Positions 5,823-37,906 of a stretch of 37,906 nucleotides of DNA are shown here, piece after piece; positions within the stretch are counted from its first letter, which is position 1; every line of letters starts with the position of its first letter. The translations under genes and the position numbers were made by a program. The stretch covers positions 1 through 37,906 of IMG/VR virus record IMGVR_UViG_3300025669_000103; one strand, written 5' to 3'. The notes beneath the pieces were generated by a model that was not told the origin of the DNA, made no database searches, and saw nothing but the letters and a program-made list of their open reading frames with translations. The DNA is from a virus. Lineage: Duplodnaviria; Caudoviricetes.

Positions 5823-6214
5823 GTTTTGTCCTTAGCAATATTATTTAATCTATCCTTAGCTAATTGAGACACCCTATCAGCAGCGGTGGGTTTGCTGTCA
5901 TCCTTATCAACTTCAACGGTAGGAACCCTGCCCTCAAGACGATCATACAACATAGTGACATACGTTTTATCTGGGAAGTGAATTACTTCTTTGTCACCTA
6001 TTACTTGCCCAGTTACCTTATCAAGTACTTCTACCTTCTGCTTATAACCCAAAGCCGCGTTCCACATGTAACGTGCCAGGGCTTCAGCCTTGGTGATCAT
6101 GCGAGCATCGTCTATACCCTTACCGAATATAAGAGGATCTTCATGATTCTCTTCAGCTATCTCACGTATAAACTGTGTGAGTAGTCTACTTGCTTTTGCT
6201 TTCGTACCGCTCAT
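5819..6214 (-). CDS. Putative terminase small subunit
   Basis: 131 aa overlapping the terL start. Helical, with a LYDRLEGRV motif common in small-terminase-like proteins. Mainly positional. Confidence 0.55.
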   Translation of the reverse strand: MSGTKAKASRLLTQFIREIAEENHEDPLIFGKGIDDARMITKAEALARYMWNAALGYKQKVEVLDKVTGQVIGDKEVIHFPDKTYVTMLYDRLEGRVPTVEVDKDDSKPTAADRVSQLAKDRLNNIAKDKT

Positions 6215-6869
6215 AAGCCGCTAATATGCTTTTCATATCCTCACAGAAGTTAATTCCTAAGCCACCATACCCGACTTGACCGTTATATATACCTACCAAT
6301 TTACCATCCTCATCATATAACGGGCCACCACTCATGCCAGCATAACCATCAGAGTCAGTCTGTATCATGTCACTCCAGTTTAGTCCTAGGTCGTTCCTAT
6401 CTATATAGGATACCATACCGCGTATAAGGCTAAACTTATAATTTATTCTTGCTGGCGTACCAGCTATATATACAGTGTCACCGAGTTCACACGGTACCAT
6501 TGAAGTATCAGATATATAGAGTTCGTCAGCTTCTACGAAGATAAAACCTACATCCTCTTCTTCGTCAATATAGAAGTCACTCGACTCAAGTATAGTACCA
6601 CCAACTAATTCTATTAACACGGCTTCTTTTCTATTACCATGTTCATCCTTTAGACAATGAGCCGCTGTAACCACAACGTTATCTTTCCAGAATACACCGG
6701 ATGCGAAACCACTATTGCCTGGATACCTCAACAGCACTGTCGCATCTACCATGTTCTCGAACTTGCTCTTTACGACCATTTCACTCTCTGCCGGTGGTAT
6801 CAAAGCACAGGATATAAAGGCCAATGCAATCAACACTAATATCAATAGTTGTACTAACTGTCGCTTCAT
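6186..6869 (-). CDS. Trypsin-like (S1) serine protease with N-terminal signal/anchor
   Basis: Catalytic triad motifs VTAAHC (His), EEDVG (Asp) and GMSGGPL (Ser). Hydrophobic N-terminus ends at FISC. Confidence 0.88.
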   Translation of the reverse strand: MKRQLVQLLILVLIALAFISCALIPPAESEMVVKSKFENMVDATVLLRYPGNSGFASGVFWKDNVVVTAAHCLKDEHGNRKEAVLIELVGGTILESSDFYIDEEEDVGFIFVEADELYISDTSMVPCELGDTVYIAGTPARINYKFSLIRGMVSYIDRNDLGLNWSDMIQTDSDGYAGMSGGPLYDEDGKLVGIYNGQVGYGGLGINFCEDMKSILAAYERYESKSK

Positions 6870-13124: not shown

Positions 13125-13397
13125 ATGGCCAAGCTTTACAGAATAGTGACAGAGAATATACACTTTCAGGCTATTGTAGAATATCTGAAAGAACACAAAC
13201 TTGACGCGACAATCATCGGTGGATCTTACGGCTTATGGCAGGGTCAAATGGAAAAATCACTTGTTATCGAAATAGTCGATGGCAGTGATATGCAAACGCT
13301 GGACGACATCGAAAGCTTTGCGTATTGGCTTAAGAAATTCAATGGACAAGATAAGGTTTTGGTCCAGATCATCGAAGCTGAGATCCGGTTCATGTAA
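13125..13397 (+). CDS. SAM lyase/DUF3574-like (PII-like fold) protein
   Basis: ATII..SYGLWQGQMEKSLVIEI...LKKFNGQDKVLV matches the G-x-W/Y...E...Q pattern of T3 SAMase-like proteins. Confidence 0.55.
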   Translation: MAKLYRIVTENIHFQAIVEYLKEHKLDATIIGGSYGLWQGQMEKSLVIEIVDGSDMQTLDDIESFAYWLKKFNGQDKVLVQIIEAEIRFM

Positions 13398-14202: not shown

Positions 14203-14352
14203 ATGTTAAGCATGGAAATATTTTACAGTGATCTGAATGTTTCAGCAAAACGAGAATTTGACGAACACTTCGGACCGCCTGAAGATTTCAACCATGAGAT
14301 CTGCCCACTGGCGATCTATGAAGTTGAAGATGGCGAAGAGGTGGTGGCATGA
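14203..14352 (+). CDS. Small acidic protein (49 aa, not in track)
   Basis: MLSMEIFYSDL...EEVVA after GGAGGTGACA; ATGA overlap with the next gene. Confidence 0.55.
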   Translation: MLSMEIFYSDLNVSAKREFDEHFGPPEDFNHEICPLAIYEVEDGEEVVA

Positions 14353-14924
14353 ACCCAAAAAACTGGTATAAGGAATGTGGCGACAGCATTCGAGCAGAGT
14401 TCGGGGCTGATTCAGAACTCTTCATCGATCTGTTAGCCGCGACATCGCCGAGAAAACAGGTATCGGCAAACTGGCGATTGGCCATGCGGATCTATCACGT
14501 GTATAGAACGGGGATCTGGAGGGAAAATTGGGAAGTTAGCGATGGAGGATATGGAAATTTATTGGCTGGTACGCTTCCGGCCCATCGGAAAAATATCCTA
14601 AGAGCCTTGAAACGCGAACCATTATCCGGCAATAAAGTACGGGCATTCGCGGCGAATCTCAAAGGCAATCTTGACGAAGTGACAATCGATGTCTGGGTGT
14701 GTCGATATTATGGATGGGATGATAAGAAATCGATGACCGATAAGGTCTATGCCAAACGTGCTGATATAATTCGCCAATACGCCAATGCTAACAGCATGAA
14801 GCCTGCTGAATATCAAGCTCTAATCTGGTATCTGGCTATTCATAAAGCAGGCAAGAAACCGCAATCTTATCTCAGTGTCAAACATAGACACCAGAGATGT
14901 TTTGAATTTTTTCTGGGGGTGTGA
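14349..14924 (+). CDS. Phage protein of HhH-GPD/DNA glycosylase-like helical family
   Basis: WY...LAATSP...KVRAF..NL.G....VTIDVW...PAEYQALIW pattern; IDVW resembles the VDTH-type catalytic Asp motif. Confidence 0.5.
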   Translation: MNPKNWYKECGDSIRAEFGADSELFIDLLAATSPRKQVSANWRLAMRIYHVYRTGIWRENWEVSDGGYGNLLAGTLPAHRKNILRALKREPLSGNKVRAFAANLKGNLDEVTIDVWVCRYYGWDDKKSMTDKVYAKRADIIRQYANANSMKPAEYQALIWYLAIHKAGKKPQSYLSVKHRHQRCFEFFLGV

Positions 14925-16227: not shown

Positions 16228-16590
16228 ATGGAGCTAGATACACCGATACAGTACGTACCTGGGGTTGGTCCGAAGCGTGCTAAGCTGTTTAACAAGCTTG
16301 GTGTTCATAACGTGGAGGATCTATTAGAGTATTTCCCACGCGACAATATTCTGCCTACTGATATCACAGATATATGTCAGCTTGAGGTAGGTAAGGACGC
16401 TCTGATCGTGGGTGAGATCAGTAAGGTAGAATACATAGGCCGAAGCAGGGTACCGATCATGAAGATCACTATCGATGACGGTACCGCTGAGTGTAAGGCT
16501 ATATGGTTTAATGGAGGCTGGTTACGTCACCAGCTTAAGGTAGGCGGTATGGTGATGATGATGGGCAGGGTCGAGCTTGCGAGGAGGTGA
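16228..16590 (+). CDS. Stand-alone RecG N-terminal (HhH plus OB/wedge) fragment
   Basis: PIQYVPGVGPKRAKLFNKLGV..VEDLLEYFPRD and IDDGT...AIWFN are RecG N-terminal signatures; no helicase domain follows. Confidence 0.85.
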   Translation: MELDTPIQYVPGVGPKRAKLFNKLGVHNVEDLLEYFPRDNILPTDITDICQLEVGKDALIVGEISKVEYIGRSRVPIMKITIDDGTAECKAIWFNGGWLRHQLKVGGMVMMMGRVELARR

Positions 16591-32444: not shown

Positions 32445-32607
32445 TTAACAAACCAAGCAATGCCAGGCCCACAGGTATCCCTATAGCCCAGTGATACTTG
32501 CTGTGCCTGGATATTCGCTTGGACACAGCGGGTAACAATTCCTTCAGTATCAAACACACACGCTCATCAACTCTAATCAGTAGTTCATCTCTTTCATCAT
32601 CGTTCAT
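32428..32607 (-). CDS. Holin-like small membrane protein (59 aa, not in track)
   Basis: MNDDERDELLIRVDERV...WAIGIPVGLALLGLLIKLVV: coiled N-terminus and one C-terminal TM; ATGA-coupled to the giant gene; last gene of the minus arm. Confidence 0.5.
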   Translation of the reverse strand: MNDDERDELLIRVDERVCLILKELLPAVSKRISRHSKYHWAIGIPVGLALLGLLIKLVV

Positions 32608-35600
32608 CTCGGTCCTCCTGCTGGTCCACCACTCGATCTTGGTCCTGTCGATGGACCACGCCTGCTAGTACCACCACTCTTTTTATCCTCTTGTTCTAAC
32701 GCCCACTTGGTATAGACGAGCCGCCTGGGATCTTGAGTCTTACCGGCCATTATATCCATCACACCGGATGCAGTGCGTATACCCTGTGCCGGTATCCTAC
32801 CTGTTGCCGCACCTACAGCCGCCGCCGCGTGCATTATAGTACCCTTAACGTTACCCTCTTTCATAGCTTGGAAAGCTCGGATCGCTTCTTCAGGAGCTAT
32901 CTCACCCACTGTACCTGAGCTACCCCAACCTTTAATCATACGCGTGATCCAGCGTCCGGCTATCATTACCGAAGCTATAGGATACGTGGTTAGATCCACC
33001 AATAGTTTGCCCAGGCTAATGTCACCCTCATCGTCAGTGGGTAAACCGCCACGCCCTATCATACCGAACATTATAGCTGGCATGATCCAGGACCACATTA
33101 CACGCCACGCTACCTCGGTGTTGCTTATCTGACCAGCGGCCCTAGCACCTATAATGTCGTGACGATAGAAGTTATAGTTGTTATTAACCTGGTTCTGGAA
33201 CGTAGTTAACAGCTTAGCTATCTGTCCACCTCTAAAGAGATGCGGTAGATCCTTGGTGTTGGCCATAGGCTGAGTACGTGCCACGTTCTTGTCAGCATAC
33301 TCAGAAGCTTGCACATCATCCATACCTTTTTCTAAGGCCACATCGTACATTGACTTCCAGGCCACTGTTACGGTACGATCATCCATCCATCTAATCCATG
33401 CGACAGCTTTCTCGTCCCAGGGTTTCTTACCCTGGATACGTTTACCCAATCGTGACGCGTCCCATCTCCGTCTGAGGTCTCGATCATACTTACGTGTCTT
33501 TACTAGCGGAGAGCGTGCATCCACAAATTCTTTCATGGCCTTGTACTTCTTGGTAGATCCAGCCGCAGCCCAGTTACCAGGCATGTACTTACGCATTAAT
33601 GGATCTACTGCCATAGCATTGTAACCGGACAACGTTTGTCTGAACGCTGACGGCACGTTATAGCCTATAGCGTAGATGATACCATTCCTACGCATGATGG
33701 CCACTATCTTTTCAAAGTCAGTCTGAGGTCCATCAGTCTGTCCTTTGATAGTATCGCGTAACCACTTGTTGAGGATCTTGCTGCCTCTGTCATTAGTGGC
33801 AACGTTAAGTGCTTGCTTGACACCATCGTGATTGAGGATCTTACCGATATCTTTAGCTATGGGTGCCATAGCCTTAAACGTTTCGATCCTTTGGATGTTA
33901 CGCATATAAATTACACCGGCATCCAATTCTATTTTACCAAGAGCACGTGCTTTACGCTTCTCAAGGAATCCTTTATCAGGTTTAGATGACTGCCTATTGA
34001 ACTGGTCGGTGAGCAGATCTACAAAGTTAACATCCTCATCACCGCCTATACGTAGGATGGGAGAGTAGTTTAATTCTTGTTCTAACAGTTCGGGATCTAC
34101 ATCAACGTCTATAGCCGCAGCCCTGAGCACCGGCCACTGTTCCTTGTACTGTGTATCCAGCCAAGCGGCTACATCAAGTTCCTGATCTGTGAGTGACTCG
34201 CTTATCAGACTTATATCCTCTTCCGAGAATGTCATGCCCTTAGTGAGATATCTGTGTCCATGCTCATTTCTAGATAGCAGGTATACACCCACCTTCTCGA
34301 ACGGTGTTAGCTCATGCGTACCTATTGTTTCTTTAGCACCGGTCCAGGTAGATCCATCGATACCACTATCTTCTATCAGGTTAAAGAACTCGTTCTGTCC
34401 CTGTGATGTCATCATACTGCGTAGTTCATCAGCGTTCTTGACACGCTTCCATATAGTGTCATGGAGTGGACCATTTTGGTATCCATCCAAGCGTTCAAGC
34501 CATCGTTCTATCCTGTTAAGCTCAGCGAAGAAACCACCTATCTTAGACTCTATTATATAGTCTAAAGCTCTCTTAGCCACTGACGGTTCATCTGTACGCC
34601 TGACATATCTTATGCCCTCAGCTATGAGATATTTTTTATCAATTAACTCCTTGGCCATAGCATCTTTGCCCGTGAGTTTAAGCTGTCCGGCCTCTTCACC
34701 TATCTTCCAAGCTTCCTCCGGTGATACGAACTCACCTTTATCAGTCAAGAATCCTGAACTTTTACCAGCATCAAGATCAGCCATAGTTATTGTTCTGCCC
34801 TTTGCTTCCTCAGCCCTCATAATATTAGCGTGTGTGGTTCCAGTTAATATCTCACCTGACTTTAATTTCAGGGCGGCACTAGCTATACCCCTTCTAGCTA
34901 TGGAGGCTCGCAGGCGTTCTATTATCTTGGGTATGATCGGTTGTTTGGGTATATAACTTCTACCAGTAGCAGCCAACTCAGCTTCAATATACTTTACCCA
35001 CTTGATCCTCTCATCTTTGGTCATTTCTGTCATAGTACGCTTGCCAGTGATATACTCTTGCAGGTCTCTACGTTGTTCGTCACCCCAACCTAATTGCTCA
35101 GGTATCTGATGTCCCTTACGCAACAATTCTTTCATCTTAGGTTTCTTAGGTTCCTTGAATACTTTACGTACTAGCCCACCTTTGGGATTAGTGTAATCTT
35201 TTGCCAATGCTTCAATGTCACCACGCTTACGGCTTAAGAAAGCAAGCTCTCTATTATCCTGTCTACTACGTTTACTAACATCTTTGTTCTTAAGCAGTCT
35301 ATATCTATCCTCAGCCCTGGCCAAAACATCCTGGACCATTACAGGAGTAAGACCAACTTCTTCTCCCTTAATATTATCCCAATTAGCAGGTAACATATCT
35401 CTGAATAGAGGTGTGTCAAGTAAGTTACGACCAAGTTCATAGAACTCATTAGCGGCAGCGATATGTATCTCAGGATCTTTATGGAATGACTTCTGGATCT
35501 TGTTCTCATTGAGATCATCTAGCGTAGCAGATTCGCCCATAGACTTAGCTAGTTCAGATCCTTTATACATGGCCAGGTTGTAGATATTGATGTGAGATAT

Positions 35601-37906
35601 GATGTCACTATTATCCTCTAACCAACCAAGTGTGTGTGCATATGTCTCCGCTGTCTCCTGCGGCAATCCGATTATAATGTTAGGTATCATGTCTATACCC
35701 AAGCGTCTAGCCTTGGCAGTAGCTTCGTCAATCAGCTTCTCGTTAGCGGGTTTCTTGCTCGCCTTTAGGATATCATTGTTATAACTCTCGACACCGATCT
35801 CGATGAACTTAACGTGTGAGTCACGCAGCATCTGATCGTCAAGCTTACCCATCTGTGCCGCTGTAGTCTGTATTATGAAGCCCTCGAACTCAGGATTCTT
35901 TTTCTTGATACGACCATATAGGTCGGATAGCTGACTGTGGTTCTTAGCCTGCCCGAATGTCTTATCATCTACATACACTAACTGTGCATCGGCCTTAGCT
36001 ATCTCATCAGCCTGATTGTTCATGATCTCAGGTGTCATCTCAGTGACACCCTTGGGTACTATACAGAACGTACACTTGTGCAGACAACCTTTAGACATAC
36101 ACATACGCGGTATAGTTTGACTACCCTCGAAGTGACTATAATCGGTACCAGGCTTGTACGCGTGTCCGCGTGCTTCAGCCATAGCTTGTATCGTCTTATA
36201 TGTCTTGGCATTAGGTAGATCATCAAAGAACTTAAGATCTGTGTAACCACCTATGGATACGTCACCACCAAAGTCCTTGGCCAACTCTTTTATATTATCC
36301 TTGTTAACATCCAGAGCACTGAACGCTATGTGATCATAACCTGATCTGGCCATAAACTCTTTGGCCTCGGACATGTCACGTACAAAGTATACGTCAGAAT
36401 TAGGAACTGTGTGGTTAACCTCGCCCATCCATTTAGGAATCTCCCAGGTGTCACCTAGTCTACGGTAGCCAGGGCGTGTGTCATATAATTTATCATAATA
36501 TGATTTAGCTTGCGGATCTTCATCAACAGTTATAAGATCAGAAGCAAACTGAACCATGAGTGTTCGACCTTTATTACCCTTGGCATCATCTTGTCTTATC
36601 CAAGGATTGACTCCGTTACCATCTTCCTCCGCTCTGATCTTGGCTTCATTGTATACCGCTCCAGGTATTGATATACGTCCGTTGCCTACCTTAGCAGCAG
36701 TACCGCGATCTATATCCGGCATCTTGGAGATAGCATAGGCAGAGAACGGGGCATCCATAGCACCGCCGAGTATGGTACCCATTATGCCAGCGTCTATGAG
36801 CCTCTTGGCAACTTCGTTAAAGTCAACTTTACCATCATCCATCCTAGGTGTGTCACCACCAAGTACCATACCTACTAGTTCCTGTGGCAATTCTTCTGCT
36901 AGACCTTCAGACAATGCTGTTAACAGTACACGCTTGCTAAAGTACTTTGCTTTACCTAACTTAGTAACAGCACTTCTCTCTGCGGCTTTGAGATACTTAC
37001 CACCTCCACCACCTACCATCTCTATGCCACCATTTATCATACCACCGACTGTACCACGCATCCTGGCACTACGCTCATCCATGCCCTGATCAAGTGCTGT
37101 CTGATATATGTTATTACCTTCAACACCATATGCTACAAGAAAACTTGCCATAGATGCTGGTATTGTTTGCCCACCTGTTAGTGCCGCTGCACCTATACTA
37201 GCTATTAAAAACGGGCCGGTCTCTACAGCACCACCAAAATACTTATCGAAGGTGTTCTCTATCACTGGTTGCATCTCAGGTTCCTGGAGTGCTTTGTGCA
37301 TCAATCTACTCCAGTCATTTATGGTGTTTCTCATGGGTATACCAGCTATGGGCTGAGCTAATTTTGATATAGTATCAGCTAAGAACAAGCCGCCGCCCAC
37401 CACCATTATCTCACCACGCTCGAAACGTCTATAAGCTTTGCTAAGGAACTTACCTTTTTTGCTGTCTTGTTCTTCCTGCCAAGCTTTCTGATCAGTAATA
37501 GACTGACGTGCATTGGATATCTCATCAACACGCTCAACCAACCTGGCTCTAGTTCTATCACCGGCCCTAGCATTCTTAGATTCTTCAGTACCAGATCCGC
37601 TACGTATCTTACGAAGATCATCTACGTACTGATCCTTTGGTGTTAGCTCTCCCCTGTTAATGAACTTTAGCAGGTCAAGATTTATCGCCCCTGGTACTGT
37701 GGAACTTGGCCTACCGGTCTTTACAGTCTCAGCTATATCCCTTACCTGTGTACTAGCTTCTTTTACCAGTGACGGAGTGGTAGGATTAAACTTAGTTGAA
37801 AAGGTTTCGTAATCAACACTAGCATAATGCTTGGCGTGCACTGCACGTGACAGTTGATCATCTGTCTTGTCCTTGTACTGCGGATATAATTGTCTGAACT
37901 CGGTTA
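32604..37906 (-). CDS. Giant internal virion/ejection-type polyvalent protein with embedded B12-binding-type radical SAM module (start lies outside the window)
   Basis: The frame stays open to the edge (TEFRQLYPQYKDKTDDQLSRAVHAKHY, a typical N-terminal motif of phage internal proteins). Ala/Gly hydrophobic region with EGLAEELPQE; radical SAM motifs at about 35420-36570; helical C-terminal region with TQP...P.LFR...LTTFQ. Confidence 0.8.
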   Translation of the reverse strand, partial: TEFRQLYPQYKDKTDDQLSRAVHAKHYASVDYETFSTKFNPTTPSLVKEASTQVRDIAETVKTGRPSSTVPGAINLDLLKFINRGELTPKDQYVDDLRKIRSGSGTEESKNARAGDRTRARLVERVDEISNARQSITDQKAWQEEQDSKKGKFLSKAYRRFERGEIMVVGGGLFLADTISKLAQPIAGIPMRNTINDWSRLMHKALQEPEMQPVIENTFDKYFGGAVETGPFLIASIGAAALTGGQTIPASMASFLVAYGVEGNNIYQTALDQGMDERSARMRGTVGGMINGGIEMVGGGGGKYLKAAERSAVTKLGKAKYFSKRVLLTALSEGLAEELPQELVGMVLGGDTPRMDDGKVDFNEVAKRLIDAGIMGTILGGAMDAPFSAYAISKMPDIDRGTAAKVGNGRISIPGAVYNEAKIRAEEDGNGVNPWIRQDDAKGNKGRTLMVQFASDLITVDEDPQAKSYYDKLYDTRPGYRRLGDTWEIPKWMGEVNHTVPNSDVYFVRDMSEAKEFMARSGYDHIAFSALDVNKDNIKELAKDFGGDVSIGGYTDLKFFDDLPNAKTYKTIQAMAEARGHAYKPGTDYSHFEGSQTIPRMCMSKGCLHKCTFCIVPKGVTEMTPEIMNNQADEIAKADAQLVYVDDKTFGQAKNHSQLSDLYGRIKKKNPEFEGFIIQTTAAQMGKLDDQMLRDSHVKFIEIGVESYNNDILKASKKPANEKLIDEATAKARRLGIDMIPNIIIGLPQETAETYAHTLGWLEDNSDIISHINIYNLAMYKGSELAKSMGESATLDDLNENKIQKSFHKDPEIHIAAANEFYELGRNLLDTPLFRDMLPANWDNIKGEEVGLTPVMVQDVLARAEDRYRLLKNKDVSKRSRQDNRELAFLSRKRGDIEALAKDYTNPKGGLVRKVFKEPKKPKMKELLRKGHQIPEQLGWGDEQRRDLQEYITGKRTMTEMTKDERIKWVKYIEAELAATGRSYIPKQPIIPKIIERLRASIARRGIASAALKLKSGEILTGTTHANIMRAEEAKGRTITMADLDAGKSSGFLTDKGEFVSPEEAWKIGEEAGQLKLTGKDAMAKELIDKKYLIAEGIRYVRRTDEPSVAKRALDYIIESKIGGFFAELNRIERWLERLDGYQNGPLHDTIWKRVKNADELRSMMTSQGQNEFFNLIEDSGIDGSTWTGAKETIGTHELTPFEKVGVYLLSRNEHGHRYLTKGMTFSEEDISLISESLTDQELDVAAWLDTQYKEQWPVLRAAAIDVDVDPELLEQELNYSPILRIGGDEDVNFVDLLTDQFNRQSSKPDKGFLEKRKARALGKIELDAGVIYMRNIQRIETFKAMAPIAKDIGKILNHDGVKQALNVATNDRGSKILNKWLRDTIKGQTDGPQTDFEKIVAIMRRNGIIYAIGYNVPSAFRQTLSGYNAMAVDPLMRKYMPGNWAAAGSTKKYKAMKEFVDARSPLVKTRKYDRDLRRRWDASRLGKRIQGKKPWDEKAVAWIRWMDDRTVTVAWKSMYDVALEKGMDDVQASEYADKNVARTQPMANTKDLPHLFRGGQIAKLLTTFQNQVNNNYNFYRHDIIGARAAGQISNTEVAWRVMWSWIMPAIMFGMIGRGGLPTDDEGDISLGKLLVDLTTYPIASVMIAGRWITRMIKGWGSSGTVGEIAPEEAIRAFQAMKEGNVKGTIMHAAAAVGAATGRIPAQGIRTASGVMDIMAGKTQDPRRLVYTKWALEQEDKKSGGTSRRGPSTGPRSSGGPAGGPR

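Follow-up and report, generated by a model that had tools for sequence, protein, structure and literature searches.

The 37.9-kb virus record analysed here (37,906 nucleotides, the whole of which we call the window) encodes on its minus strand a giant protein that is likely a podovirus ejection protein and that carries an enzyme as cargo. Our analysis confirms that residues 440–830 of this protein are, by their sequence motifs and predicted structure, a Rossmann-plus-radical-SAM unit with an intact catalytic motif. Its homologues form a real, conserved and mostly viral radical SAM family that is undescribed as far as our searches reach.

The giant protein and its radical SAM module

The window contains portal, terminase, DNA polymerase A and D5-type primase genes, together with a gene for a trypsin-like protease beside the terminase gene (6186–6869, minus strand) and one for a stand-alone RecG wedge domain (16228–16590, plus strand). 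The reading frame of the giant protein is still open at the window's end; a second assembly (P0002, locus L001) supplies the complete protein of 1,769 aa and adds three residues to the window copy. Its parts are listed in Table 1 with two companion genes. The N-terminal scaffold is common to 9 of 119 other carriers of the module, and the optional insert of about 100 aa, which has no Pfam match, is present in 14 of 177 large carriers, two of these being seeds. No Kyte-Doolittle window of the giant protein exceeds 1.5, and Pfam finds no LPD domain in the window protein itself.

Table 1. Features of the giant protein and of two companion genes in the window
Feature	Position	Strand	Extent or basis
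Giant putative ejection (internal virion) protein	32604..37904	-	1,766 of 1,769 aa inside window
N-terminal scaffold, aa 1–439, Gly/Ala-rich at 150–400	36588..37904	-	
Putative Rossmann domain, B12-binding type	36129..36566	-	fold comparison and residue conservation
Radical SAM barrel	35415..36122	-	Pfam, AlphaFold2 model, fold comparison, conservation
CxxxCxxC cluster motif (CLHKCTFC)	36063..36086	-	in-frame translation; 249/249 modules
Second optional insert, ~100 aa	34590..34892	-	absent from P0005 and L113
C-terminal scaffold domain, homologous to Carin-1 gp32 C-terminus	32670..34529	-	tblastn, blastp, profile
DUF7178, predicted HhH-GPD glycosylase fold	14349..14924	+	Pfam, model, fold comparison
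Probable SAM lyase, early anti-restriction gene	13125..13397	+	G-x-W, E, Q motif; profile

The initial annotation quoted ten motifs of a B12-binding radical SAM enzyme; all ten lie in one minus-strand frame at the positions it gave, and CLHKCTFC is found exactly where the cluster motif had been placed. The module itself was also correctly located at 35420..36570, but it is slightly longer (35415–36587). The match to PF04055 is above the Pfam cut-off (E 4.7e-12), and an AlphaFold2 model of residues 440–830, built from a 66-row alignment (pLDDT 96.0, pTM 0.92), shows a Rossmann domain of five strands and, after it, the radical SAM barrel, as had been anticipated from the motifs. With its CxxxCxxC in a predicted partial TIM barrel the module belongs to the radical SAM superfamily, and this motif is intact in all 249 of the single-piece, near-complete modules among 276 matching proteins; the module scores far below every NCBIfam cut-off. 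The best fold match, and the top Foldseek result, is AprD4 (Z 25.7, rmsd 3.0, 354 residues aligned), nearly tied with MgmA (Z 24.7, rmsd 3.3, 319 aligned) and followed by MiaB (Z 21.7); the model aligns over nearly its whole length with these three and with RimO, TsrM, OxsB, CysS and TokK, and its Rossmann part (model residues 7–143) with AerR (7te2, Z 9.6). In module numbering, E49, P51, W53 and S90 of the Rossmann domain are invariant and G113/G114 are 99–100% conserved, while the barrel invariants are R161, Y205, D208, Q240, T241, E263, E267, K279 and N303, with K209 rounding to 100%. In the alignment R161 and K209 are basic residues specific to this family.

A chimeric assembly at the domain borders, a concern raised by the initial annotation, is rejected by border-spanning contigs and flank-keeping homologues. 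Contigs of four runs, each bearing the label salt lake metagenome, contain no joints there and bridge both borders: X1 record 1 covers the stretch in full and X3 record 11 bridges both borders (these two runs may themselves be the source of the window DNA), while the C-terminal border is bridged by X9 record 16 and the N-terminal border by X10 record 8. None of the runs listed with this DNA is an RNA run. The module is no chimera because independent assemblies span both borders, and both flanks are kept in the homologues P0003–P0006. A pseudogene is likewise rejected, by the intact catalytic motif and by the codon changes, among which synonymous ones outnumber those that change the amino acid (158 to 74 in comparison with locus L164, and 132 to 89 with L165).

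An ejection-type setting with exchangeable cargo

The flanks had been read as those of a podovirus ejection protein, and gene order, homology to gp32 of Cobetia phage Carin-1 and polyvalent partner domains all support that setting. In L001 the giant gene is the last of the structural block, following tail-type genes and a pair of Q/G-rich ones (285 and 266 aa); that is, it has the position expected of an ejection protein gene, the largest one after the tail nozzle and behind two smaller Q/G-rich genes. Most fused loci show the same order and a few follow head-type genes (27 loci inspected); PHROGs names no upstream neighbour as an ejection protein. Homology to the end of Carin-1 gp32 extends over the C-terminal 620 aa (tblastn E 6e-9; blastp 4e-18 and profile 1e-35 at Z=1000), and in that phage the order is nozzle, gp35, gp34, the lysozyme gp33, then gp32. 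A PDB sequence search with the C-terminal domain gave no match. By its sequence and setting the window protein is expected to be present in the virion.

This C-terminal domain is common to only 25 of the 177 large carriers. The other domains of the carriers (16 scanned) include ART-PolyVal, InPase, Nudix, GNAT, GGDEF, LPD23 and LPD38, and the carriers have the two marks of polyvalent proteins, disparate domains variably combined in one chain and a gene among the virion (late) genes.

The proposal that the module is a swappable insert in otherwise similar proteins is borne out by relatives that have the same flanks and have lost the barrel. Twelve viral loci share the C-terminal domain; five of them have the whole module (four seeds and one duplicate), two have a Rossmann remnant alone, and five are without the module (one of these is cut at its 5' end). 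L113 (1–3084, minus strand) and L131 (4947–9527) have a deletion of the barrel, and what is left of their Rossmann domain has lost the conserved residues and contains an inserted Pol-beta nucleotidyltransferase; their flanks are 57% (N-terminal) and 64% identical to those of the window protein. We regard the module as swappable cargo because close relatives have lost the barrel, one with a nucleotidyltransferase instead, and, judging from these sequences, the invariant Rossmann residues serve the enzyme and not the fold. Domains of 85–230 aa are also inserted inside the module in P0105, P0109, P0112, P0118, L117 and L049, mostly just after the GGY motif, which is the site of the L113 nucleotidyltransferase; the L049 insert is in the barrel.

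Among proteins of 971–3,091 aa there are 148 matches to the module (120 listed); 88 shorter proteins also match, many of them complete at 375–430 aa, and 302 of 1.84 billion 50%-identity representatives match at E<1e-30. The carriers are mostly phage polyvalent proteins of 1,000–5,000 aa, and some members stand alone: the 75 viral loci comprise 49 fused, 24 stand-alone and 2 cut by contig ends (near-duplicates included), and the best 80 of 282 metagenome matches comprise 67 fused, 9 stand-alone and 4 cut. No module match was found in 50,697 records of cultured phages. The 185,579 species genomes scanned gave 14 loci, 8 of which are family members, four on phage-like contigs and four cellular; where metagenome-assembled genomes (MAGs) place the module in Dehalococcoidia, Planctomycetia and Polyangiaceae, the contigs are phage-like ones that were binned with them. 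A quick maximum-likelihood tree of 83 rows, with near-duplicates and some re-fetched loci left out, has stand-alone and cellular forms at its base and groups the fused forms, together with some unfused rows, in a single derived clade (SH-aLRT 99), within which one stand-alone group is a reversion. Two unusual members are a carrier protein that also has DnaJ and GGDEF domains (L117:6704–14317, from a phage-like contig within a Planctomycetia MAG) and a stand-alone member of 549 aa in a 343-kb record (L042:9662–11308), whose N-terminus may resemble a T4-type capsid-targeting sequence.

Cobalamin pocket, cellular relatives and companion genes

The initial annotation called the module a cobalamin-type class B enzyme; the fold part of this claim stands, in the domain order and the five-stranded Rossmann domain, and the B12 dependence is weakened, two pocket hallmarks being missing and the closest fold match, AprD4, binding no cobalamin (PMC12931638). 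Class 1 cobalamin-dependent radical SAM enzymes are defined by an N-terminal five-stranded Rossmann domain before the barrel (PMC13331322), which the module has. No PF02310 match above the cut-off was found: the window protein has none in Pfam, and the best match, that of the Aliirhizobium member (L120), is below it at E 3.5e-5, with a cobalamin adenosyltransferase gene two genes downstream of that member. Genome G095, which may be incomplete, gave no PF02310 match. Judged by pocket marks that five solved enzymes and a profile of six genomic class B sequences display, the module keeps S90-x4-N95 after strand 3 and G113-G114 after strand 4. It has lost the small residue at the P-x-G helix start, where the invariant Trp W53 stands and may fill the pocket of the cobalamin tail (Ala in TsrM, Ser in OxsB, Asp in AprD4), and the xGE (GEGE-type) motif after strand 5 that is present in TsrM, MgmA, OxsB and CysS. 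In favour of cobalamin, a B12-binding cluster ranks third in the ESM Atlas, behind two viral clusters. From these sequence and model comparisons cobalamin use appears doubtful, and we put the chance that the module binds cobalamin near, and on the lower side of, an even one.

The four cellular members have suggestive neighbours. In both Saccharimonadales loci (L119:8945–12102 and L121:8938–12115) an APH-family kinase gene, the radical SAM gene and an inositol monophosphatase gene stand in a row, and in Aliirhizobium and Halovulum, both of them isolates and both aerobic genera, genes for a class II aldolase and a nucleoside phosphorylase lie beside the radical SAM gene. The Aliirhizobium cluster (L120:3282–14866) looks like a small-molecule pathway, with an epimerase, MATE, an ATP-grasp ligase, an amino-acid ABC transporter, the radical SAM protein, aldolase II, an aldehyde dehydrogenase, the cobalamin adenosyltransferase and the phosphorylase. 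5'-Deoxyadenosine is a by-product of any radical SAM enzyme and is salvaged by phosphorylase, aldolase and kinase. These loci, the only four on which the substrate proposal is built, point by their gene content to a phosphorylated ribose-type substrate, or merely to by-product clearance.

The commonest companion in phages is DUF7178, found in 17 of 40 and 10 of 23 carrier contigs (63 of 75 submitted) and in 32 of the 120 listed module-matching proteins. Its model resembles the 8-oxoguanine glycosylase Ogg (3n0u; Z 12.0, rmsd 3.5, 158 aligned), with invariant K96 and D114, 18 residues apart; HhH glycosylases have a catalytic Lys/Asp pair. DUF7178 is fused in 54 of the 177 large carriers, at a rate that climbs with protein length (2/54, 16/53 and 36/70). 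The link between the two runs one way: the module is in none of 10 further DUF7178 contigs and, as a partial match, in one of 29 non-seed contigs, and cultured phage records hold DUF7178 in 68 cases versus none for the module. An obligate pair is unsupported, since DUF7178 often occurs without the module. No long DUF7178 proteins were found (weak evidence), a single-sequence DUF7178 scan gave no match, and five barrel-less scaffold contigs, four of them fragments, gave no DUF7178 match. PF23802 has no match in the L001 contig though the gene is in the window; that contig may lack the region. We found no paper naming DUF7178.

The Gly, Glu and Gln that are strictly conserved in phage SAM lyases (PMC7877911) are present in the product of the probable SAM lyase gene. 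Pfam barely detects the window copy (PF23780 E 0.18, against 0.003 for L035), the family profile of this gene and PF23780 match the same ORF in six genomes, and a PDB search with the protein gave no match. The gene is in 12 of 45 contigs with the barrel and 2 of 5 without, being no rarer without it, and therefore marks a shared early anti-defence region, not a pathway; an obligate link between module and lyase is unsupported, since the gene also occurs in contigs without the barrel. Stand-alone radical SAM copies lie in early cassettes with the SAM-lyase-like gene at 7 of 30 loci (4 seeds). In large phages, a Dam-type methylase gene is directly upstream of stand-alone members at L066:1256–3211 (also L068) and L067:9198–11140, and near another (L002:5716–6574) are genes whose products we presume to resemble a dATP/dGTP diphosphohydrolase and a deoxyribosyltransferase.

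Possible functions and relation to known systems

The explanation we tentatively prefer, while rating it short of probable, is that the module is an ejected, swappable radical SAM enzyme, probably working without vitamin B12, that acts on a phosphorylated ribose-type host molecule as a counter-defence. Starting from what the sequences and the model show, namely the fold with its conserved catalytic motif, the gain and loss of the module and the place of the gene in the ejection block, we infer all four steps of a mechanism. The giant protein would be packaged and then ejected unfolded or loosely folded; the module would refold in the cytoplasm and acquire a [4Fe-4S] cluster from the host; it would cleave SAM to give a 5'-deoxyadenosyl radical, abstract a sugar hydrogen, and so dehydrate, deoxygenate or fragment a nucleotide or SAM-derived nucleoside phosphate, like AprD4 and viperin (the latter performs a radical SAM reaction on a nucleotide); and a defence signal or cofactor would be destroyed, or an inhibitor made, before the early genes, the probable SAM lyase included, are expressed. 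A later SAM lyase would reward running SAM-dependent chemistry first; stand-alone copies beside the lyase are at odds with this timing. More tentative still is the general form of the idea, that a widespread group of uncultured phages injects, within its DNA-ejection machinery, an Fe-S radical enzyme that attacks a nucleotide, a second messenger or a SAM-derived cofactor of the host in the manner of viperin and thereby disarms defence before expression begins.

The initial annotation had the enzyme injected ready-made, which is doubtful: in phage N4 the tail channel is 30–45 Å wide, and the giant ejection protein is thought to pass it unfolded or loosely folded (PMC13434306). A pre-loaded holoenzyme is unlikely because the ejected protein probably unfolds. 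The preferred explanation of an ejected counter-defence enzyme is favoured by the standing of AprD4, the top fold match and no cobalamin binder (PMC12931638), by the Trp in the pocket and the absent xGE motif, by the family-specific R161 and K209, and by the kinase/phosphatase and aldolase/phosphorylase neighbours of the bacterial members; the varied enzyme cargo of the carriers, the nucleotidyltransferase in the slot of L131, the several stand-alone copies in early cassettes with the SAM-lyase-like gene, and the gp32 homology and gene order count in its favour as well. Against it, MgmA, which methylates a protein and depends on cobalamin, is almost level as a fold match (Z 24.7 versus 25.7), the pocket residues S90-x4-N95 and G113-G114 are kept, and the Aliirhizobium member combines a weak PF02310 match with a nearby cobalamin adenosyltransferase; moreover, the phosphorylase, aldolase and kinase neighbours may merely clear 5'-deoxyadenosine, contigs that lack the barrel have the SAM-lyase-like gene no less often, and Fe-S loading takes time.

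The retained S-x4-N and GG, the class B fold and the adenosyltransferase neighbour would also suit a cobalamin-dependent methylase or other radical modifier of incoming phage DNA, protecting in cis as P1 DarB does (PMC5512222) and possibly working with DUF7178 as a base-flipping domain. DUF7178 in 27 of 63 carrier contigs, its fusion in 54 of 177 large carriers and the Dam-type methylase directly upstream in L066/L068 and L067 agree with this, but two cobalamin-pocket hallmarks are missing, DUF7178 often occurs without the module and its fusion rate tracks protein length, and the cellular operons are small-molecule-like; we consider such a DNA modifier unlikely. That the module methylates or otherwise modifies a host protein or RNA by radical chemistry, like MgmA or MiaB, is quite improbable, there being no conserved auxiliary cysteines in the N-terminal domain and the cellular neighbours handling small molecules; what recommends it is the fold similarity to both enzymes (Z 24.7 and 21.7), the compact two-domain architecture without a C-terminal lid domain, and the protein-modifying ART and GNAT domains of polyvalent proteins.

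The cassettes shared with the SAM-lyase-like gene at 7 of 30 loci, and the precedent of T3 SAMase as a counter-defence enzyme (PMC7877911), raise the thought that the module mainly consumes or alters SAM (or MTA) and, once injected, would counter type I restriction and BREX in the way of T3 SAMase; radical cleavage is slow and reductant-dependent, however, a few injected copies could presumably hardly drain the pool, and the number of invariant residues speaks for a second, specific substrate, all of which makes a SAM sink very improbable. No better placed is late action in the producer cell or in assembly, with the fusion serving expression or localisation and not injection: a chain probably unfolded by ejection, basal stand-alone forms and one clade reverted to stand-alone would fit it, but the fusion persists in many scaffolds that are unrelated to one another (this C-terminal domain is present in only 25 of 177) and several stand-alone copies are in early cassettes.

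The injected phage enzymes described in the sources at hand are polymerases, methylases, ADP-ribosyltransferases and hydrolases. If our preferred explanation, an ejected radical SAM enzyme acting against host defence, is true, an oxygen-sensitive metalloenzyme that has to mature after ejection would widen what a virion can deliver, and the module would represent a counter-defence of a new kind, brought in by the virion and based on a novel radical SAM reaction. In addition, the module may clearly exemplify how a domain of the B12 type is put to use for a different ligand. Thanks to the members of 380 aa that stand alone, and to the four operons in bacteria, the reaction can be tested directly, without the phage.

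Among known enzymes AprD4 (6fd2), a radical SAM diol dehydratase, shares with the module the whole fold, a Rossmann-like domain and a non-small residue at P-x-G, but it is only 14% identical, the module has no aminoglycoside pathway context, and it scores 21.4 against the AprD4 family NF033070, whose cut-off is 500. MgmA/QCMT, TokK, CysS, TsrM and OxsB have the same domain order, five-stranded Rossmann domain, S-x4-N and GG; unlike them, the module has no PF02310 match, no xGE and no C-terminal extra domain, and has Trp at the small position of helix 1. MiaB and RimO are the best PDB sequence matches (E 1e-4, barrel only), and the module differs from them in having neither the conserved second cysteine triad nor a TRAM domain; a methylthiotransferase is rejected, as the N-terminal domain has no auxiliary cysteines. 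Carin-1 gp32 resembles the window protein in its homologous C-terminal 620 aa and its place after the tail nozzle and lysozyme genes, but it has no radical SAM module and is annotated as hypothetical. Our literature search found no paper on a fusion of radical SAM and ejection or polyvalent proteins or on the module family, and the word "radical" does not occur in the main text of the polyvalent protein study by Iyer et al. (2017; PMC5512222), whose supplements could hold an entry. The phage polyvalent proteins described there, such as P1 DarB and N4 vRNAP, are likewise giant late-gene proteins that join unrelated enzymes, and they share ART-PolyVal, InPase, LPD23, LPD38, Nudix and GNAT domains with the carriers; polyvalent cargo itself is thus already known, and what is new, as far as these searches reach, is a radical SAM family as cargo in phage polyvalent ejection-type proteins.
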